From positions 510,001 through 542,000 of the forward strand of contig NZ_CP043316.1 in NCBI RefSeq assembly GCF_008189405.1: a stretch of 32,000 nucleotides of DNA, in the 5' to 3' direction. Made by a program: the position numbers and the translations under genes. This document shows, piece after piece, positions 1,044 through 17,217 of this stretch. The stretch is from Candidatus Saccharimonadota bacterium (GTDB taxonomy: Bacteria > Pseudomonadota > Alphaproteobacteria > CAJXXZ01 > 1604HC). Position 1 is the stretch's first letter, and each line of letters starts with the position of its first letter. Below the pieces are notes generated by a model. The model was not told the DNA's origin. It did no database searches and saw nothing but the letters and a program-made list of their open reading frames with translations.

Positions 1044-1949
1044 TTAAATAAATTCATTGTAAAAATGGTCAAATCCATTTTCAATATAATCACTGGGATC
1101 TGCTACCCAATTATCATCAGAATCAGATCCACCTTGAATCATCCATACCATATGCATATTACATGGCAAATCTTCATCTAATACATCTAATACATCATTT
1201 TTGAAAACAGCCACTTCATATAAATCTTGATCACCATCCCCGTATACAGGCACACCAATCCCAACTGATTTGAGATTTGCAAACATTTCAGGATTTTTCC
1301 TATAAACAAAATTCACCATCCTTGCTACTTTATCGCAATCTTTACCAGCATAAAAAGATAATTCCTGAGCAGAAGCTGTATTAATGAGATATTCAACAAT
1401 CTCATCTTTTATATTAATATCATCTTCTATATTAGGCTTGCTATCTTTCTTTTCTGTATTACATGTAATTTCTAGCTTTTTAAATGTAAACTTCTGATTG
1501 AATTGATAGAATTCTCTATTTGGTATCATTGCATCAATATTCAACTCGTGATCAAAACAATCTATTGTTTTAAAGCCAAAACACTGCATAAATGTTAGCA
1601 TGACATATACAGTGCTGTCGGCCGTATCTATATCATCGAAATAGTCTAGTATATGAGTATTCAAACAGCCAACTGTATCAGTTTGACTCATAAATGGAGC
1701 AATCAAATCTCGCAAATTATCATCATTCAAAATACGGTCATCTATTTGCAATTTATTAATTATCTCTTTATCTGCAATTGATATAGCGCTATTTTGCGCT
1801 CCCAAAAACCTCAGATATATATCAGACTCTGCAGACCTTCTTCTAACTGGACTGCTCACATCATGATCACCTTCATTCCAAAATTTATCAAACATTTCAT
1901 CAATTATCATATTAGATATAAAATTCATATTAACCCTACTAGAGCTCAT
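1044..1949 (-). CDS. Hypothetical acidic protein with no recognisable family
   Basis: The long ORF 1044..1994 starts with TTG in the track. In-frame ATGs lie at 1964 and 1949, and the one at 1949 (MSSSRVNMNF...) has GGAG 9 nt upstream. The protein is strongly D/E-rich, with no obvious signal peptide, TM segment or catalytic motif. Start choice is uncertain. Confidence 0.55.
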   Translation of the reverse strand: MSSSRVNMNFISNMIIDEMFDKFWNEGDHDVSSPVRRRSAESDIYLRFLGAQNSAISIADKEIINKLQIDDRILNDDNLRDLIAPFMSQTDTVGCLNTHILDYFDDIDTADSTVYVMLTFMQCFGFKTIDCFDHELNIDAMIPNREFYQFNQKFTFKKLEITCNTEKKDSKPNIEDDINIKDEIVEYLINTASAQELSFYAGKDCDKVARMVNFVYRKNPEMFANLKSVGIGVPVYGDGDQDLYEVAVFKNDVLDVLDEDLPCNMHMVWMIQGGSDSDDNWVADPSDYIENGFDHFYNEFI

Positions 1950-2006: not shown

Positions 2007-2022
2007 TGTTCCACGTGGAACA
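2007..2022. repeat. parS-like 16-bp perfect palindrome TGTTCCACGTGGAACA (copy A)
   Basis: Exact palindrome read from the sequence. Each half-site TGTTCCAC equals the left half of the B. subtilis parS TGTTCCACGTGAAACA. Intergenic, 13 nt beyond the maximal ORF start of the orphan gene. Confidence 0.6.
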
Positions 2023-2139
2023 TTTGAAACTTTTCAAACATTCTCTACCTAGCTATTGAAATTCATTTTTTATAGCTTTAAGATTCTTTTGAATTTATTG
2101 CAAATGATTAATTTAATTGTTTTATAAGCTGATTTGAAT

Positions 2140-2155
2140 TGTTCCACGTGGAACA
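2140..2155. repeat. parS-like 16-bp perfect palindrome (copy B)
   Basis: Identical 16-mer, and the identical 23-mer TGAATTGTTCCACGTGGAACATT is shared with copy A. Lies 133 bp from copy A and 26 nt downstream of the prfB stop. Confidence 0.6.
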
Positions 2156-2180
2156 TTCTATAAATATATTAGCTTAATCA

Positions 2181-3269
2181 TTATAGTTTGAGATATGAGA
2201 TCAAAAATTCCTTAATATCACCATCTAATACTTTATCTGCTTGTGTAGATTCTGTTCCAGTTCTAACATCTTTGATCATTTTATACGGATGCAATACATA
2301 TGAACGAATCTGACTTCCCCATGCATTATCTTTTTTAGCAGCCATACCCTCTACAGCAGCCTGTCTTTTCTTCTCCTGTTCAAAAGCATAAAGCTTTGAT
2401 TTCAACATACTCATTGCTTGATCTTTATTTTTATGCTGTGATCTATCATTTTGACATTGTACAACGATACCAGTTGGGATGTGAGTGATTCGTACAGCAC
2501 TATCAGTCTTATTAACATGCTGACCACCTGCACCAGAAGCTCTATAAGTATCCAATCTAATATCCTTGTTTTCAATTTCAATTTTAATGTCATCATTGAT
2601 AACGGGTGTGACATATACAGATGCAAAGCTAGTATGGCGCCTATTATTTGAATCAAATGGAGAAACACGAACTAATCTATGTACACCAGACTCCCCTTTC
2701 ATCCATCCATACGGAAATGATGCCTCTCCTGATGAAATCTTAATAGTAGCAGACTTTACACCAGCCTCTTCTCCCATCAATTGATCTGTAATCTCACATT
2801 TATATCCATTCTTCTCAGCAAACCTAATATACATTCTTAATAACATTTGAACCCAATCTTGCGATTCAGTACCACCAGCACCAGCATTAAAATCTACATA
2901 ACAATCTAGCGAATCAGATTCATCTGCAAATAATGTCTGAATATACCATGACTCCGTTTTCTTGAATAAACTCACTATGTCTTCATTGATTAGTTCAGCC
3001 AAACTATCGTAATCATCATCAACTGCATTTTTTGTATCTTCCAATACTGCTTTTGAACTTTTAAATTCCTGGTACATATTTTTCAATTTAGATAGTTCTT
3101 GTAAGATTTTTTTTGCAGAGCTTTGATCATTCCATAAATCAGGATTCCCAGCTTTCTGCTCTAAATCTACAATTTTAGCTTCTATATTATTCTTCACAAT
3201 ATTCGCACTCCAGAAATCTAGGTACTTTTCGATTTGCTCTATTTTTTCTATTACATCTTGCTTTTGCAT
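2181..3269 (-). CDS. prfB: Peptide chain release factor 2
   Basis: SPF tripeptide (RVSPFDSNNRRHTSF) and GGQ motif (SGAGGQHVNKTDSAVRITHIPTG). Collinear with E. coli RF2 over the full length. A single uninterrupted ORF with an ATG start. Confidence 0.95.
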   Translation of the reverse strand: MQKQDVIEKIEQIEKYLDFWSANIVKNNIEAKIVDLEQKAGNPDLWNDQSSAKKILQELSKLKNMYQEFKSSKAVLEDTKNAVDDDYDSLAELINEDIVSLFKKTESWYIQTLFADESDSLDCYVDFNAGAGGTESQDWVQMLLRMYIRFAEKNGYKCEITDQLMGEEAGVKSATIKISSGEASFPYGWMKGESGVHRLVRVSPFDSNNRRHTSFASVYVTPVINDDIKIEIENKDIRLDTYRASGAGGQHVNKTDSAVRITHIPTGIVVQCQNDRSQHKNKDQAMSMLKSKLYAFEQEKKRQAAVEGMAAKKDNAWGSQIRSYVLHPYKMIKDVRTGTESTQADKVLDGDIKEFLISYLKL

Positions 3270-3290
3270 ATAGGACCATTTTCGGATTAT

Positions 3291-3319
3291 TTGTAAAGCC
3301 TGTCAAATAGATGTAAAAT
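3291..3319 (+). promoter_or_regulatory. Candidate sigma70-type promoter for the ferredoxin-NADP reductase gene
   Basis: TTGTAA (3291-3296), 17 nt spacer, TAAAAT (3314-3319), then GGAG and the ATG at 3335. AT-rich background makes chance matches likely. Confidence 0.3.
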
Positions 3320-3334
3320 ATATAAATTGGAGAA

Positions 3335-4336
3335 ATGATGAATATTGTAAATAATACAATTGAAACTGATGTTGTTGTGATTGGGGGAGGGCCTAGTGGA
3401 CTATTTAGCGTGTTCATGTTGGGTCAAGTAGGCTTAAAATGTATTTTGATAGATTCACGATCAGAAATAGGAGGGCAATGCACAGCATTATACCCAGATA
3501 AATATATATATGATGTTGCAGGGTTCAAAGAGATATATGCACAAGATCTTATAGACCGATTATATAATCAAATGATTCAATATAATCCACAAATCCTTCT
3601 AGATACTGCTATACAAAATGTAGAGAAAAATGATAAACACTTTATATTACACACTCAACACAAAGCGATTAAAGCTAGAGCTATGATTATTTCATCTGGA
3701 GCAGGGTCTTTTGCTCCTAAAAAACCAGATCTGCAAGATATTGATTCATATAACAAAGTATTTTATAAATTAGAAAATCCTGAACAATTCACAGGAAACG
3801 TAGCTGTAATAGGCGGTGGAGATTCTGCTGTAGATTGGTGCTTAACATTATCTGATTATGCAGACAAAGTATTTTTAATTCACAGAAGAAATAAATTTAG
3901 AGCTATGGATGGATCTATGGACAAATTACATGAAATTGCAAAAACTGGTAAATGTGAAATTTTAACTCCATATACAGTAGAAAATCTAAATGGGTGTACA
4001 GATCGCGTAATACGTAACTTAAAAATTAAACATAAAGACACAAAAGAATCAAAAGAAATTTCAATTGATACTTTAATTCCATGTTATGGATTACAAAGCA
4101 ATAATGACCTTGTATATAATCTAGGTGTGGATTTATATGGATCTAAAATTAAAATCAATCCAGCTACTGGACAAACTTCATCAGATGGAATATATGCTGT
4201 AGGAGATGCGTCATATTACCAAAACAGACACAATTTAATAACATGTGGATTTTCTGAAGCTTCATTAGCAAGCTTACACATTAGGAAAAATGTTTTTGCA
4301 GAATCTCCATATATCAAACCCCCTTACACTGTATAA
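3335..4336 (+). CDS. Ferredoxin--NADP(+) reductase, thioredoxin-reductase-like (YumC) type
   Basis: VVVIGGGPSG FAD site, GGQCTALYPDKYIYDVAGF, GGGDSAVDW NADPH site and HRRNKFRA. Collinear with B. subtilis YumC-type FNR. Confidence 0.85.
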   Translation: MMNIVNNTIETDVVVIGGGPSGLFSVFMLGQVGLKCILIDSRSEIGGQCTALYPDKYIYDVAGFKEIYAQDLIDRLYNQMIQYNPQILLDTAIQNVEKNDKHFILHTQHKAIKARAMIISSGAGSFAPKKPDLQDIDSYNKVFYKLENPEQFTGNVAVIGGGDSAVDWCLTLSDYADKVFLIHRRNKFRAMDGSMDKLHEIAKTGKCEILTPYTVENLNGCTDRVIRNLKIKHKDTKESKEISIDTLIPCYGLQSNNDLVYNLGVDLYGSKIKINPATGQTSSDGIYAVGDASYYQNRHNLITCGFSEASLASLHIRKNVFAESPYIKPPYTV

Positions 4337-4509
4337 TTTATCATCCAACCTATCATACAAAACAATAATATTAAGCAATAATGCTAAATACATATCTCAA
4401 GCTCAATTCAAACAAACAAAATTCAAATGCAATAAACAGAATAATCGTATAAATACAAATAAGAAAATATAACCACACATAAAGCAGGAAAATCTCGCTA
4501 TGAATAAAT

Positions 4510-4525
4510 TGTTCCACATGGAACA
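4510..4525. repeat. parS-like palindrome, one-mismatch variant TGTTCCACATGGAACA (copy C)
   Basis: 15/16 identity to the other copies (CACATG core). Same AAT...TTT flanks. Lies 137 bp upstream of copy D. Confidence 0.5.
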
Positions 4526-4646
4526 TTTGCCCAAAATGGTGTAGCTATAGATTCTAATATAATGCTTTAGCTCATGTGTTTTTATCAGATTCACTTTATA
4601 TATTTGCTAATGCTGGATAATACATTCTCATGACCATAATTACAAT

Positions 4647-4662
4647 TGTTCCACGTGGAACA
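4647..4662. repeat. parS-like 16-bp perfect palindrome (copy D)
   Basis: Exact TGTTCCACGTGGAACA, intergenic. Confidence 0.6.
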
Positions 4663-4780
4663 TCTCTAAATAATTTCAAAGCATATTGTTTGATTTATAT
4701 ACCATGCAAAACATTTAGTTTTATACTAGTAACATTATTATTCAACTCAGCACATTACCAATAAACATCACAATGCAAAT

Positions 4781-4796
4781 TGTTCCACGTGGAACA
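4781..4796. repeat. parS-like 16-bp perfect palindrome (copy E)
   Basis: Exact TGTTCCACGTGGAACA, 134 bp from copy D, intergenic. Confidence 0.6.
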
Positions 4797-4974
4797 TTAC
4801 AGCATATGCATTGTTAAGCACATTAACATTAATGTTATGCTAATCAATATAAGTCAATACAACAATCATTCATACTGCATACCATTGCAAATATTTCTCA
4901 ATTAAATATACAAACCTTAAAATTATAAATAAATATTCAGAAAAATTAACTAACATTCAATGTGGATTTTGTTC

Positions 4975-5013
4975 AAAAAAAATGAAGTGAGCTTACAGTA
5001 AACTGCAAGTCAC
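4975..5013 (-). terminator. Candidate intrinsic terminator downstream of tRNA-Glu
   Basis: The minus-strand RNA GUGACUUGCAG-UUUA-CUGUAAGCUCAC forms an 11-bp stem with one bulged C and one G.U pair. It is followed by UUCAUUUUUUUU (U-run 4975-4982). The stem begins in the last 3 nt of the tRNA. Confidence 0.45.
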
Positions 5014-5083
5014 CCTCAACGGGATTTGAACCCGTGTTACCGCCGTGAAAGGGCGGCGTCCTAGGCCTCTAGACGATAAGGGC
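5011..5083 (-). tRNA. tRNA-Glu (anticodon UUC)
   Basis: The 73-nt reverse complement is GCCCTTATCGTCTAGAGGCCTAGGACGCCGCCCTTTCACGGCGGTAACACGGGTTCAAATCCCGTTGAGGGTG. The acceptor stem has 7 bp including two G.U pairs. The anticodon stem is CCGCC/GGCGG with loop CTTTCAC, and the T arm is ACGGG-TTCAAAT-CCCGT. Near-identical D and anticodon arms to E. coli tRNA-Glu. CCA is not encoded. Confidence 0.92.
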
Positions 5084-5092
5084 AACCCCCAC

Positions 5093-5121
5093 ATTATATG
5101 CAACTAACAATCAAAAATCAA
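5093..5121 (-). promoter_or_regulatory. Candidate sigma70 promoter of tRNA-Glu
   Basis: On the minus strand: TTGATT (5121-5116), 17 nt spacer, consensus TATAAT (5098-5093), then the G-rich discriminator GTGGGGGTT and tRNA position +1 at 5083. Confidence 0.5.
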
Positions 5122-5288
5122 TATACATTTACAATATCATCAAAAAACAGATCGTATAGTACTTAAATATCAAGAAACTTCAATACTATACATAAAGCAC
5201 AAATATATAATAGCAGAATTATTATTTAAGATATTTTATACAATCGATAATTTATCAGCTTTGTTTCATGATATAGCTTATAACAATA

Positions 5289-5304
5289 TATTTCATGTGG
5301 AGCA
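5289..5304. repeat. Degenerate parS-like relic (12/16 match: TATTTCATGTGGAGCA)
   Basis: Weak match, noticed only because it sits 140 bp before copy F and so echoes the 133-137 bp spacing of the other copies. Confidence 0.2.
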
Positions 5305-5428
5305 TCGTAACCATTCTACATTACCAATATATATATCATTAAGATCAAACCATTATATTAAGAGATTAGGATAAGGGTAACAGTATAATTATATTAACAA
5401 ATCTTTTCATTATAATTATAAATAAAAA

Positions 5429-5444
5429 TGTTCCACGTGGAACA
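5429..5444. repeat. parS-like perfect palindrome (copy F), extended to the 18-bp palindrome ATGTTCCACGTGGAACAT
   Basis: Exact 16-mer, intergenic between rnd and tRNA-Glu. Confidence 0.6.
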
Positions 5445-5501: not shown

Positions 5502-6161
5502 TTACAAATGTGCAAAAATATCAACATCATGCCATCCAGCACAATCCAATTTCACACGATTTTCTAGAAAATCAAAGCAAGACACTGCTAAATCATGCCT
5601 TCCTTCACGCAACAACATTGCAGTAAGTTTATCTTGTAATTTATGCAAAAATATAACATCTTTCGCTGCATAATTTTTTTGATCATCTTGCAATTCAGCG
5701 CTTCCCCAATCAGAAGACTGCTTATCTTTCGAAATTTCCACACCAAGTAGCTCTCTACATAATTCACGCAATCCATGTCGTTCTGTATATGTTCTTATTA
5801 ATTTAGATGCAAGCTTTGTACAGTAAATCGGCCTAGGCATCACTTTAAAAGCTTGATATAAAATTGCCATATCAAATCGTCCAAAATGGAATATTTTTTC
5901 TATATTTTCATTTTCGAGAATAGCCGTTAAATTTTTAGCTTCTTTTTGATCTTTATCGATTTGAACCAAATGACAAATCCCATCATTAAATGTTAATTGA
6001 ACCAAACACAGCCTATCTCTATATAAATGCAATCCTGTAGTTTCTGTATCTATAGCAACTGAATCAGATATTTCAATATCATCAGGCAAATCATTTTCAT
6101 GCAATATTACTTTGCAAGCCTGCCCTCCATAATAATTTATTTTCACTACACATAATATCAC
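5502..6161 (-). CDS. rnd: Short RNase D-like DEDD 3'-5' exonuclease
   Basis: Exo I motif AIDTETTGL, then CLVQL and the FHFGRFD/YAAKDV regions typical of RNase D. About 200 aa, as in Rickettsiales short RNase D. The track start is GTG at 6161 and the true N-terminus is uncertain. Confidence 0.75.
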   Translation of the reverse strand: MILCVVKINYYGGQACKVILHENDLPDDIEISDSVAIDTETTGLHLYRDRLCLVQLTFNDGICHLVQIDKDQKEAKNLTAILENENIEKIFHFGRFDMAILYQAFKVMPRPIYCTKLASKLIRTYTERHGLRELCRELLGVEISKDKQSSDWGSAELQDDQKNYAAKDVIFLHKLQDKLTAMLLREGRHDLAVSCFDFLENRVKLDCAGWHDVDIFAHL

Positions 6162-7042
6162 ATGCTCAACTTATTTTCACTATTTAAATGCTATCATGTT
6201 TATTAGCGATATCAGTGCTATCTACTCTTTAACAGCTTATACTATTCATTAATAACCTATTGGTAACATATAAACCTATGCCTTATTTATTATAAGATAT
6301 TTCTATCTATTATATATATTGAATAAGCATATACTGATATATATAAATAATATAAAGAATAGTATACGCTACCATTACTAATAGTTATTTCTTGATCAAA
6401 TGAGTATCATAATGCATCTGAGCAATAACTGTAAAACTAGCAGTATATGAAAATCTATTCTTTGTGCAAATAGTATAAAAATAACATTCTCATCCTACTT
6501 TAGTATTTCTCATTATATAATTCTATTTTTATTGCATATTAATTAACAATCTAATATATAGGGATAAATGCTACTATTTAAGAATATATACATTCACGGG
6601 TAACAGCTAAATCACATCATAAATATGCAGTAATTTAATATGCCTAATTATTATTAAAGCACTAAATATTATCAAATCAAACAATCAGTAAGCAAATAAT
6701 ATATAATCAAAATAACAATATCATCAATAAAATCAAGAGAATATAACCTTATAAATTTAATTAAAACAGCAAGAATTTAATTGAGCAAGCATTGATTTTT
6801 GAATTTCAAACTAAATTTCAATCATGCAAACAGTATAGATATCAAACATTCTAGCAATAATATTTATTTCTTTGAGCACATTAAGTTCTTTGAAAAAAAT
6901 TAAAATATTTATAAAAACTTCATAAAACTGCAAATCTTAGAAAAGAAATTAGCAATTAAATTTTAAACTAAATTAATGAAAAAATCTTAAAATAAATATG
7001 GAAATTTATATATACTAATTCCCAATTAAGTCAGGTTACAGT

Positions 7043-7393
7043 TTAAACTAATTCTATAATAGAAATAGGGGCTCCGTCACCTTTACGGAAACCAACTTTG
7101 ATAGTTCTGGTATAACCACCATCTCTATCCTGATACATAGCAGATATCTTTTCAGATACATTTTTAACGTAATCTTTATCTCTGAAAACAGAAATCAATT
7201 TTCGTATAGAAGCTAAATCACCTTTTCTCATCAATGTAATCATTTTTTCAGAGAATGGTCTACAAGCAGCAATTTTTGCTTTTGTAGAGCAGATTTTTCC
7301 ATGTAACAATAAGGATCTAGAAAGGTTCATAATTAATGCCTTTCTGTTTCCTTGCTTTCTATTTAATTTTACTTTACTAACGCAATGACGCAT
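7043..7393 (-). CDS. rplQ: 50S ribosomal protein L17
   Basis: MRHCVSKVKLNR and GGYTRTIKVGFRKGDGAPISIIELV are collinear with E. coli L17. 1-nt TAATG overlap with rpoA. Confidence 0.95.
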   Translation of the reverse strand: MRHCVSKVKLNRKQGNRKALIMNLSRSLLLHGKICSTKAKIAACRPFSEKMITLMRKGDLASIRKLISVFRDKDYVKNVSEKISAMYQDRDGGYTRTIKVGFRKGDGAPISIIELV

Positions 7394-12205: not shown

Positions 12206-12570
12206 TAGAACTCCAATCCATTTTCTCTTGCAGTATCAGCAAGAGCTTTAATACAACCATGCATTTTCCATCCACCAATATCGAAAACAATTTTTGTTTT
12301 ATTTTTCGCTTTTAATTTGTCAGCAATTTGCTTTCCAATCCATTTAAAGCTTTCCATACCATAAGTTTTCAATGAATCTTTTGGAAAATCTTTAGAATTA
12401 GAGCTAACAGAGGCGATAGTAATGTGGTTTGCATCATCTATAGCTTGGGCATATATAAACTTATTAGATTTAAAAACAGATAATCTTAATCTATTACCAG
12501 CATTATTTAACCTTAATTTATATCTTCTTCTTTGCTGTCTTCTGCAAAATGATATAGCCAATCTAGACAT
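12205..12570 (-). CDS. rplR: 50S ribosomal protein L18
   Basis: RLRLSVFKSNKFIYAQAIDD, at the position between rplF and rpsE. Confidence 0.93.
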   Translation of the reverse strand: MSRLAISFCRRQQRRRYKLRLNNAGNRLRLSVFKSNKFIYAQAIDDANHITIASVSSNSKDFPKDSLKTYGMESFKWIGKQIADKLKAKNKTKIVFDIGGWKMHGCIKALADTARENGLEF

Positions 12571-13109
12571 TATCTTTTACCTGCTTTCTTAATTACACCT
12601 TTACCATCGGGCAATATTTCACCACCTTTATATGGTATTGGCTTTCTATATGCAACAACTTCTGCTACAAACTTACCAACTTCTTCAGACTTAATTCCAT
12701 AAACTTCTATAAGTGTAGGCTTAACACATACAACTTTTAAAGAAGGTGGAACTTTCACTTCAATAGGGTGACTATATCCAAGTGACATCTCTAAAATATC
12801 TCCCTTTATAGCACTTTTATAACCAGTTCCAGATAACTCTAAAGTTTTTTTGAATGGGTTATTAATGCCCTTAATAGCAGAAACTATTTGCGCTCTAATA
12901 GTGCCTAACATAGGAAAGTTTCTACTTTTCTTTCCAGCTGGATCATTCAGAGAAATCATCATGGATTTATCAGAAACATCCAAATCTAAGAAATATGGAA
13001 TTTTGATTTGAATCTCACCATTAGATCCTTTGATCGCTAAAACTTTGTCAGCAAAAGTACAAACAATGCCATCAGCATATACAATAGGATTTCTCGCCAA
13101 TCTAGACAT
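12570..13109 (-). CDS. rplF: 50S ribosomal protein L6
   Basis: MSRLARNPI start, 179 aa, conserved position. Confidence 0.95.
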   Translation of the reverse strand: MSRLARNPIVYADGIVCTFADKVLAIKGSNGEIQIKIPYFLDLDVSDKSMMISLNDPAGKKSRNFPMLGTIRAQIVSAIKGINNPFKKTLELSGTGYKSAIKGDILEMSLGYSHPIEVKVPPSLKVVCVKPTLIEVYGIKSEEVGKFVAEVVAYRKPIPYKGGEILPDGKGVIKKAGKR

Positions 13110-13492
13110 TAGTAAACCTCACAAACAAGCTCACCACCAACACCTTGAGCATATGCTTTGATGTCAGATAGAACTCCATTAGGCGTACTAATAACAGATA
13201 AGGCAAATCTTTTTCTTCTCATGTTCTTTAAGTCTTTAGACTGAACATAAAATCTTCTTGAAGATTTAGAAATTCTTTTCATTCCTCTAATTACAGGAAC
13301 ACCCTTTATATCATACTTTAAAGTAACATTCATTGATCTATCAGATTCTTCTATATCTGCAATGAAACCTTCACTTTTCATAACCTCTAAAATGCTCTTA
13401 ACAAATTTAGATTTTTGTACTACAACAACCTCTTTACCAACTAAATAAGCATTCCTTATTCTAGCTAAAGTATCAGAAACTATATCATTCAT
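13109..13492 (-). CDS. rpsH: 30S ribosomal protein S8
   Basis: VSDTLARIRNA motif, 127 aa. Confidence 0.95.
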   Translation of the reverse strand: MNDIVSDTLARIRNAYLVGKEVVVVQKSKFVKSILEVMKSEGFIADIEESDRSMNVTLKYDIKGVPVIRGMKRISKSSRRFYVQSKDLKNMRRKRFALSVISTPNGVLSDIKAYAQGVGGELVCEVY

Positions 13493-14666: not shown

Positions 14667-15026
14667 TTAATACACCTTCAAAGCTCTAGATGTAATAGCA
14701 GAATCAGTAGCTCCACTTTCTCTAGCAACACATCCTAAAACTCTAGTTCCAAGCATTTTACCCTTAGCGTCAACTAATACAACTGCATTGTCACCACTTC
14801 TCCATTTAAGACCATTTTTTCTATAGATCATGGATTTTGTTCTAACTATTACTGCGTAATGAACTTCACCCTCTTTAACATTAGCATTAGGCTCAGCTCT
14901 TCTAACGGACACTCTAATTTTATGCCCAACACGAGCATCTCCATTACGAGAACCCATATTAAAACATTTCACCTTTTTAGCTCCAGAGTTATCAGCAACA
15001 TTTAATATAGTCTCTTTATAAATCAC
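14667..15026 (-). CDS. rplN: 50S ribosomal protein L14
   Basis: (M)IYKETILNVADNSGAKKVKCF. GTG start at 15026, overlapping rpsQ by 11 nt. Confidence 0.95.
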   Translation of the reverse strand: MIYKETILNVADNSGAKKVKCFNMGSRNGDARVGHKIRVSVRRAEPNANVKEGEVHYAVIVRTKSMIYRKNGLKWRSGDNAVVLVDAKGKMLGTRVLGCVARESGATDSAITSRALKVY

Positions 15027-15255
15027 TGACTACCTCCACGAAACACCAATGTTTTCTCTTAGAAATTGGAGCGCAAGCCTTCGCTTTGACGTTATCCCCA
15101 ACTTTACATGTATTCATAGGATCATGAATCATGAATTTCTTAGATCTAGTAATAATATTTTTATAGACAGGATGCTTGAATCTTCTCTTAATTTCAATAG
15201 ACACAGTTTTGTCAGCAGAGCATGACACAACTTTCCCACTTATGTACTTAGTCAT
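15016..15255 (-). CDS. rpsQ: 30S ribosomal protein S17
   Basis: GKVVSCSADKTVSIEIKRRFKHPVYKN. Confidence 0.95.
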   Translation of the reverse strand: MTKYISGKVVSCSADKTVSIEIKRRFKHPVYKNIITRSKKFMIHDPMNTCKVGDNVKAKACAPISKRKHWCFVEVVSDL

Positions 15256-15394
15256 TCTTCACCTCTATAGTCTTCATTTTAGCAATCTTTCTCCTAATTT
15301 TCTTCAATTCAGAAGTATTTTTTAGGGCTTTTTTAGAATGCTGAAACTTCAACTCTAGATAGCTACTCATAAGTTCTAATAATTTTTCAGACAT
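15248..15394 (-). CDS. rpmC: 50S ribosomal protein L29, N-terminally short (48 aa)
   Basis: Below the 60-aa threshold of the ORF track, so translated by hand: MSEKLLELMSSYLELKFQHSKKALKNTSELKKIRRKIAKMKTIEVKND. It aligns with E. coli L29 from about residue 13 (FNLRMQ.. / ..VRRDVARVKT). It sits at the canonical position with an ATGACTAA overlap onto rpsQ. An in-frame TAG 5 codons upstream of the ATG prevents a longer ORF. Confidence 0.8.
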   Translation of the reverse strand: MSEKLLELMSSYLELKFQHSKKALKNTSELKKIRRKIAKMKTIEVKND

Positions 15395-15663
15395 ACATAA
15401 AATGTACTATATATTCAAATTTAAATCTAGAGAACCAAAGATAAGAAAGTTGGTATGGTTAACATAGCTTATTTAACTAAAGATAAAAAGGTTAACTAAC
15501 TTATATAGCTCACTCAACCAAACATAAAAATCATTTTTCTATGAGTGATTTGTAATCATAACACTATAAATATCCCCTACAACGAATTATAAGAATACTA
15601 TTGTAAAGATATCATAACATTCACCTTAAGCTTTCAGTATCAACTTATATCAAATCTTTCACT

Positions 15664-16170
15664 TCAACTACTTTTAATACCAACATAAATGTCAAAAACT
15701 GAATTGCTAGGATCTTTAGCGCGCTCATCATAAACTTCAAAATCTGCGATATACGCGCGTTCTCCACCAAGGTCACTGCTATTCATTCCCCAGATCTTCC
15801 TCCACGCACTAATACAGACACCTGGCATTTCTCCAGGCCCTTCTGTGAATTTCATATAACTTTGCACAGGAATATTCAAAACTACTAAAGCATCAGAATC
15901 TGCATTGACTAGCTCAGCCCCTTCATATACTTCCTCTCCAACAAAGTAAGTGTACTCATCATGCTCATCTTTTTCATAATTAGCATAAACACAATACATA
16001 ACACCTGGATTCTTTCTATTCGGAATCTTAGATGAAATGTCATTGTTTAAATACTGGTTGATTGTATTCAATATTTTGCCTTTTGTTGGATCCATTTCGT
16101 TTGCATTGCTGGTTTTAACTGAAATTCCAATTAATTTCATTCCCAACAATGTTGTTTGCTTTTTATTCAT
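15664..16170 (-). CDS. GyrI-like / Cass2-type small-molecule (effector) binding domain protein
   Basis: 168 aa from the ATG at 16170, with GAAGGAAG 7 nt upstream; the track ORF extends to 16254. The pattern LLGMKLIGISVKTSN..EMDP..GKI...IPNRKNPGVMYCVY.NYE.DE..EYTYFVGEEV...PGEMP....AWRKIW......GGERAY.ADFEVYDERAKDP.NS.FDIYVGIK is the typical stand-alone AraC-effector-binding/GyrI-like fold signature. Confidence 0.8.
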   Translation of the reverse strand: MNKKQTTLLGMKLIGISVKTSNANEMDPTKGKILNTINQYLNNDISSKIPNRKNPGVMYCVYANYEKDEHDEYTYFVGEEVYEGAELVNADSDALVVLNIPVQSYMKFTEGPGEMPGVCISAWRKIWGMNSSDLGGERAYIADFEVYDERAKDPSNSVFDIYVGIKSS

Positions 16171-16672
16171 AACCACTTCTTCCTTCAACCTATATTGTAT
16201 ATTAAATTTGGAAGAGCAGGGCAATACCCTATAATTATTTGCATATATCTCCATATTAAATATACATAAATCCCCATGACTTACCTTTGAATTTCATAAT
16301 TAATTTGATGCAATAGCATAACTTATTAAGTGTATGGTTTATATACAGCGCATTCATGATTCAAACTATATCTAATGCTTTGTTCGCATACAACATAGTT
16401 TCAATAAAATATCTCTGCTTATTTATTTACGCTACTGCTTTTTTATTTATATGCTCAATTTACTAACCAATCAATATTCTCATAGCTTTACGCAGTATAC
16501 TCAGCCTTATAGCTCTCAAAATATATCACTATAAACTTGATTTGCTGATCTTTAAATATATTTATTAGGAAATGCTTTTAATTATAAATTAATACTCCTT
16601 TATATATTCAATCAATTATTATGCAATCTATTAAACATCAAAATTCCAACAACCTTACAATAAGCCCACTTG

Positions 16673-16722
16673 AGATTATAATATCAGGCGATTTGGAAGA
16701 TTATAATATCAGGCGATTTGGA
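16673..16722. repeat. Perfect 25-bp tandem duplication (AGATTATAATATCAGGCGATTTGGA x2)
   Basis: Read directly: 16673-16697 equals 16698-16722. Each unit contains the self-complementary ATTATAAT (TATAAT on both strands) and GGCGATTTGG. An inverted third copy of GGCGATTT (as AAATCGCC) lies at 16775-16782. Confidence 0.9.
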
Positions 16723-17217
16723 GTGTTATTGTTTTATTTATGCTTATTTTATTTATCACTATCATTATGAAACTAAATCGCCCACCATTTATTAGTTTGA
16801 TTCAGGATTATATATCAATCATATATATCATTCATTTCAGTTCATGAGAACAATTTGAATTCAATAAAAACATAACTAAATTCTATTCCCAAAATAGCTA
16901 GGCTTAATAAAAAATCATATATATCATTTCTTAAAGTATAATCGCTTTAAAATATCTTTTATCCTGTAAAACAATTCTTATTGTTAAAGTCATTTCTAAT
17001 AAATATAATTATAAGGTTTGATATTTACAGCATACCTATTCATTATAAAGTATATAATCTCATATATATTGGAAACAATAAAAAATAATATTTTTGTAAA
17101 AATTTGATTATGTAAATTCACATAAAAAGCATTATCTAAATAAATTTAACAATTGCTGAACACAACAAATATGCTGCTCAATCTAATTTTATGGCAGAAA
17201 TGCCAGAGTGATATAAA

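Follow-up and report, generated by a model that had tools for sequence, protein, structure and literature searches.

A cluster of parS-type palindromes, probably a chromosomal centromere, in the reduced endosymbiont Candidatus Cytomitobacter primus

Results and discussion

Six parS-type palindromes lie downstream of the ribosomal-protein cluster

The 32-kb stretch of DNA analyzed here, referred to as the window, originates from Candidatus Cytomitobacter primus, which belongs to the Holosporaceae, lives inside the diplonemid Diplonema japonicum as an endosymbiont and has approximately 30% G+C, and maps to its chromosome (OX638200.1, 622,378 bp). Downstream of rplQ, the last gene of a ribosomal-protein/rpoA cluster, lie genes encoding an RNase D-like exonuclease, tRNA-Glu, an FNR-like oxidoreductase, release factor 2 (prfB) and an acidic orphan protein (Table 1). 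The gaps between these genes hold six copies of a 16-bp palindrome, TGTTCCACGTGGAACA, of the parS type. On the evidence given below, these palindromes very probably make up the chromosomal centromere of Ca. C. primus, that is, a parS array at which ParB is predicted to load.

We scanned the window for TGTTCCACGTGGAACA with up to 3 mismatches, using 100 dinucleotide-preserving shuffles as the null. The scan recovered five exact copies and one copy with a single mismatch, all of which had been listed in an earlier reading made from the letters of the DNA (the sequence-only reading), and no further match in the 32 kb, again as that reading had it. The chance expectation for the 16-mer is 0.07 matches and none of the shuffles reached six (0/100). 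The mismatch in copy 3 is a G-to-A transition in the central CpG. All six sites lie outside genes, in three gaps totaling approximately 1.4 kb: the 231 bp from the orphan gene to prfB hold two, the stretch from the FNR-like gene to tRNA-Glu holds three, and one separates the RNase D-like gene from tRNA-Glu. The intergenic location first described for the sites therefore stands, but the 3.4 kb across which they are spread is not all intergenic, since it also holds prfB, the FNR-like gene and tRNA-Glu.

Altogether 48.6 kb of the 622-kb Ca. C. primus genome was examined, comprising the window and loci L003 and L008. The 16-mer was absent from the other 45 kb of this DNA, which includes approximately 7.5 kb of intergenic DNA besides the gaps with sites. 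Were the sites evenly spread, the probability that all six would fall within 1.4 of the 8.9 kb of intergenic DNA is approximately 1e-5. Start-to-start spacings in the window are 133, 137 and 134 bp, as originally reported, and the spacers cannot be aligned, their similarity being no greater than chance. We considered an origin of the array by recent tandem duplication and rejected it because the spacers have no residual similarity. A relic copy had also been proposed at 5289. The 12/16 match does exist, but it cannot be counted as a site because coding DNA contains matches just as good (4 mismatches), at 2253 and 11795.

Table 1. Palindromes and genes at the putative centromere (window positions)
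Feature	Position	Strand	Description
parS copy 1	2007..2022	no strand	exact TGTTCCACGTGGAACA; 58 bp before the orphan gene's annotated start
parS copy 2	2140..2155	no strand	exact TGTTCCACGTGGAACA; 26 bp past the prfB stop codon
parS copy 3	4510..4525	no strand	one mismatch, TGTTCCACATGGAACA (CACATG core); 174 bp past the stop of the FNR-like gene
parS copy 4	4647..4662	no strand	exact TGTTCCACGTGGAACA
parS copy 5	4781..4796	no strand	exact TGTTCCACGTGGAACA; 213 bp from the 3' end of tRNA-Glu
parS copy 6	5429..5444	no strand	exact TGTTCCACGTGGAACA; 57 bp past the stop of the RNase D-like gene
Possible decayed copy	5289..5304	no strand	TATTTCATGTGGAGCA, 12/16 match; indistinguishable from chance
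prfB (peptide chain release factor 2)	2181..3269	-	inside the array
FNR-like NAD(P)/FAD oxidoreductase	3338..4336	+	inside the array; 100% identical to a Ca. Cytomitobacter primus protein
tRNA-Glu(UUC)	5009..5084	-	inside the array
RNase D-like 3'-5' exonuclease	5502..6146	-	borders the array; anchor for finding the arrays of relatives
rplQ (L17)	7043..7393	-	last gene of the ribosomal-protein/rpoA cluster
Orphan gene	1044..1949	-	acidic protein of ~301-316 aa, no Pfam match; two parS copies in the upstream 231 bp

The palindrome is identical to validated parS sites

TGTTCCACGTGGAACA has exactly the sequence of the perfectly palindromic parS2/parS3 of Pseudomonas aeruginosa, and mutating these sites disrupts chromosome segregation in that species (PMC4368675). 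A review table lists the same 16-mer as the site of P. putida and gives TGTTCCACGTGGAACG for the 22 sites of M. xanthus (PMC7022226), one base apart from the palindrome found here. As a 16-bp inverted repeat, a parS site matches tGTTNCACGTGAAACa or a validated variant of it, and the match to parS2/parS3 is 16/16. The sequence-only reading had recognized parS-type centromere sites on the strength of a 14/16 match to the consensus, a figure that understates the case because the 16-mer is identical to a validated P. aeruginosa parS. Its identification is supported by this identity, by the occurrence of arrays in four related genomes and by metagenome arrays beside parA/parB, both described below.

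Arrays persist downstream of rplQ in related genomes

Orthologous loci of relatives were obtained via the FNR-like, RNase D-like and SspB proteins. This comparison, which had been proposed along with the original description, yielded arrays of 8, 8 and 3 sites in three related genomes. In the metagenome-assembled genome (MAG) CP060235 (558 kb; FNR-like protein 66% identical), 8 sites likewise flank prfB-FNR at locus L006, with spacings of 109, 71, 120, 119 and 89 bp. A Cytomitobacter sp. genome of 619 kb has 8 sites in 2.1 kb at locus L009, the first of them 18 bp past the rplQ stop; no site is found at its prfB-FNR pair, which has relocated elsewhere. The second Cytomitobacter sp. genome (622 kb, locus L132) has 3 sites, 208-1313 bp past rplQ. 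In Ca. C. primus the array lies 1.6-5.0 kb downstream of rplQ, around prfB-FNR, and in 4/4 genomes with sites it is found 0-8 kb downstream of that gene.

We then compared the 25 sites of these four genomes (window, L006, L009 and L132) with 60 bp of flanking DNA on either side. The flanks are unalignable, with a best non-overlapping score of 32 against a null maximum of 31. Only two flanking positions are enriched, A at -2 (22/25) and T at +2 (21/25), and the longer consensus AAT...TyT drawn from the window does not hold over the 25 sites. The symmetry of the A(-2)/T(+2) enrichment suggests a weak 20-bp dyad. All variant copies (6/6) carry G:C-to-A:T transitions, 5 of them in the central CpG, as expected if selection restrains AT-biased mutation. 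Since the DNA between and around the copies is unalignable, the palindrome alone is under selection. The pattern is the one expected of a protein-binding site that is selected against AT-biased decay and whose copies are gained and lost: individual sites turn over quickly, whereas the motif and its neighborhood downstream of rplQ persist. Few in number, clustered, rare elsewhere and maintained by selection in relatives, the copies are distributed as parS sites are. The regular period of approximately 135 bp is present in the window as claimed but is specific to the Ca. C. primus genome; sites in relatives are 57-373 bp apart. As the spacing is not conserved, it offers no evidence of function.

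Dense arrays of the same 16-mer are common in metagenomes

The same 16-mer was sought in metagenomes as two exact copies 116-146 bp apart, and at least 120 contigs carried such close pairs. Among the matches listed, arrays reach up to 23 copies, often at a very regular spacing of 43, 60, 83 or 100 bp, and the G+C content of the listed contigs ranges from 27 to 71%. ParB-like genes were found in 45/120 and ParA-like genes in 67/120 of the listed loci, using ParB and ParA probe sequences. In the four examples checked, Pfam confirmed these assignments (ParB_N, HTH_ParB and ParB_C for ParB; AAA_31 for ParA). Six listed loci have 4 kb or more of DNA to either side of the array, and in four of these parAB lie approximately 1 kb from it.

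Dense, intergenic and regular arrays of this 16-mer are thus common and tied to ParAB and origins. The density, strictly intergenic location and periodic spacing of the window array had been singled out as unusual, a view that these numbers do not support: with dense, regular arrays of the same 16-mer so common in metagenomes, neither the density nor the spacing in the window is out of the ordinary. The metagenome arrays also correct the view, derived from model organisms, of parS sites as few and scattered.

Two of the listed loci illustrate the range of arrangements. At L111 (4008-6607, 27% G+C), 21 copies (up to 2 mismatches) with spacings of 100-160 bp fill a 3.3-kb gap directly upstream of dnaA-dnaN, with YidC and a class I tRNA synthetase encoded on the other side of the array. 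At L131 (12230-13979), 23 copies with a very regular spacing of 41-46 bp flank a ParA-like gene (12444-13187), an arrangement that resembles a plasmid-style tandem centromere made of the chromosomal parS motif.

ParB, ParA and the replication origin

Several results weigh against a centromere at this locus. Neither parA nor parB was found in the 48.6 kb of Ca. C. primus DNA (Pfam lists; tblastn) or in the approximately 140 kb of relatives' DNA examined for these genes, although metagenome arrays usually lie approximately 1 kb from parAB. Neither the gene dnaA nor a cluster of DnaA boxes was seen in the 48.6 kb. The window has 7 DnaA boxes (up to 1 mismatch) versus 12.5 expected, which is no enrichment, and none lie in the gaps that hold parS sites. 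To the left and right of the array alike, GC skew is negative, with intergenic values of approximately -0.2, and shows no replication-type switch. Finally, in Ca. Nesciobacter abundans, the next relative and a co-resident endosymbiont, no 16-mer (up to 3 mismatches) was detected in 41.6 kb surrounding the prfB-FNR and RNase D orthologues (L007 and L011), so in this species the array is either elsewhere or missing.

A partition protein was also sought through the GERRxRA motif in all six reading frames and through tblastn with the Spo0J and Caulobacter ParB sequences. Like the Pfam lists, these searches gave no match in the Cytomitobacter, Nesciobacter and MAG loci, L009-L011 and L132 being checked for parA/parB by Pfam lists only. 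The same ParB/ParA probes did detect both proteins in metagenome loci and so are effective. A published supplementary table without Cytomitobacter lists ParB (COG1475) for all of its Holosporales genomes (PMC11724238), and we found no statement in the literature on ParB in Cytomitobacter.

Orphan genes neighboring the arrays were considered as divergent ParB and rejected: the 316-aa acidic protein of the window has no Pfam match, the 294-aa orphan of L009 looks secreted and the sequence of the 307-aa orphan of L006 appears to hold ankyrin-type repeats. The window and L009 proteins, the two that were compared, are not homologous to each other, and the orphan genes beside the arrays of relatives appear unrelated to the orphan at 1044-1949.

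A sign change in GC skew does occur in the window at 26.7 kb. It coincides with a switch in gene orientation (26.0-27.5 kb) between a HAD hydrolase gene on the minus strand and Bax1-I/HlyD/AcrB genes on the plus strand. To the right of 26.7 kb, minus-strand genes are strongly negative at third codon positions and most intergenic DNA is negative or near zero. An origin at this position was rejected, as the switch is gone at third codon positions and in intergenic DNA; the change follows gene orientation and therefore provides no evidence of an origin.

Alternative explanations for the palindromes

In a less conventional arrangement, the array would have become detached from parAB and oriC and be kept in place where the ribosomal-protein/rpoA cluster ends, across the endosymbiont clade. 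It would then be used by a distant ParB, for example mainly as an SMC-loading or nucleoid-organizing site in a 0.6-Mb genome possibly without ParA, or, after loss of ParB, by another protein. We regard this arrangement as unlikely.

It is also rather improbable that the palindromes are parS-derived sites now bound by a different protein, such as a ParB paralogue or a transcription factor, with the chromosomal ParABS lost in genome reduction and the protein regulating neighboring genes or organizing the DNA. In favor are the extreme reduction of the genome (622 kb), the position of two sites upstream of the orphan gene and the lack of parAB for at least 10-25 kb around the array in each of the four genomes. 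Yet the motif is a 16/16 match to a validated ParB site and unchanged in four diverged genomes, for which a conserved ParB helix-turn-helix is the simplest explanation; a new protein would have to recognize the unchanged canonical parS in four lineages. Most sites, moreover, are found at gene 3' ends rather than promoters. The array has no linked candidate regulator, the neighboring orphans being mutually non-homologous and free of DNA-binding features, and ParB is kept in the other Holosporales examined.

A reading of the palindromes as RNA hairpins rather than protein-binding DNA, either intrinsic terminators or intergenic repeats of the repetitive extragenic palindromic (REP) kind, seems very improbable. 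A simple scan does call four sites terminator-like on the minus strand, and in MAG CP060235 four sites are 5-22 bp from a stop codon. Copy 6, past the RNase D-like stop, combines a 7-bp stem with a TTTTATTTAT tail; it resembles a weak terminator because of the T-rich tail that follows the palindrome on the minus strand. Elements of this kind, however, are dispersed over intergenic regions or gene ends and form stable G+C-rich hairpins followed by a U-tract. Here the stem is short and weak, with 6 bp and 3 G-C pairs, in 2/4 contexts its fold energy falls in the shuffle range, and most tails lack a U-tract. Several copies are consecutive without an intervening gene, and none occurs at approximately 55 other gene ends in the 48.6 kb or outside the arrays in the approximately 140 kb from relatives.

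Finally, the cluster can hardly be a DnaA-binding region, whether oriC or a locus that titrates DnaA: the half-site TGTTCCAC(G/A) does resemble the DnaA box TTATCCACA, matching 6-7/9 of its positions by direct sequence reading, the sites are multiple, clustered and intergenic, and the array of the AT-rich contig L111 adjoins dnaA-dnaN, but the conserved unit is the full 16-bp dyad and not a 9-mer, and neither the several TTATCCACA-like boxes and local GC-skew sign change of an oriC nor a nearby dnaA was found.

A predicted multi-site centromere

Of the readings considered, a chromosomal centromere agrees best with the identity, clustering and conservation of the sites, and the array looks like an ordinary centromere of a well-known kind in an unusual organism. 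On this reading the genome is predicted to encode ParB, which would bind the sites, and the array may lie close to the origin. Going by established ParABS biology, a ParB dimer would recognize each 16-bp site through its helix-turn-helix domain, then bind cytidine triphosphate, close as a clamp and slide to adjoining DNA. Several loading sites in 3.4 kb would give rise to one partition complex over prfB, the FNR-like gene, tRNA-Glu and the RNase D-like gene. Such a complex would be moved by ParA and/or load SMC, and sister chromosomes would separate.

Multi-site chromosomal centromeres, with near-identical parS sites concentrated in one region, occur in Caulobacter, Corynebacterium and Streptomyces. 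The Ca. C. primus array is like the parS sites of P. aeruginosa and P. putida in its identical palindrome, its clustered copies and its variants that differ by single bases (PMC4368675, PMC7022226). In Pseudomonas, by contrast, four sites are spread over approximately 15 kb beside oriC, with further scattered ones, and ParB binding has been demonstrated by experiment, whereas here six sites lie in 3.4 kb and their binding of ParB is predicted. The M. xanthus cluster of 22 sites is similar in that many near-identical parS in one region act as a single centromere (PMC7022226). Unlike this and other multi-site clusters, which lie beside parAB and oriC, the Cytomitobacter array is located past rplQ, and the surrounding 10-25 kb hold no parAB.

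Close parallels are the metagenome arrays beside parAB (L067, L126 and L017) and upstream of dnaA-dnaN (L111), which use the same exact 16-mer, are non-coding and have close, often regular copies. The listed metagenome arrays hold 3-23 copies and include AT-rich genomes. In contrast to Ca. C. primus, most of them are approximately 1 kb from parAB or at dnaA, and spacings of 40-100 bp are commoner than approximately 135 bp. Plasmid and prophage arrays of regularly spaced partition-protein sites, such as F sopC with its 12 tandem 43-bp repeats, nucleate one partition complex. The window array shares with them the regular spacing of sites that a partition protein is predicted to bind. However, such arrays consist of true tandem whole-unit repeats of a plasmid-specific motif, while the copies in the window have nothing but the 16-mer in common, with unrelated spacers and chromosomal housekeeping genes around them.

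If confirmed, these sites would mean that a highly reduced protist endosymbiont of approximately 0.6 Mb keeps a multi-site ParB centromere under strong selection, and parS would therefore be a useful annotation landmark for such genomes. The current understanding of ParABS is unchanged by the array. Mildly notable are its retention at 0.6 Mb, its association with the end of the ribosomal-protein cluster instead of parAB, and the fast turnover of its sites.

Other features of the neighborhood

Between the RNase D-like gene and rplQ, positions 6147-7042 are 896 bp of non-coding DNA with approximately 23% G+C and no parS copy. The counterpart of this region after rplQ in the 619-kb relative (L009, 3366-5661) is where the 8-copy array of that genome is located. 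Within the ribosomal-protein cluster of the window, no open reading frame for L29 was seen at the usual place of rpmC. The cluster itself is broken at 15256-17217, between rplP (L16, 17218-17634) and rpsQ (S17, 15016-15255), by a Cass2/GyrI-like gene (15664-16254) and approximately 1.4 kb of non-coding DNA.

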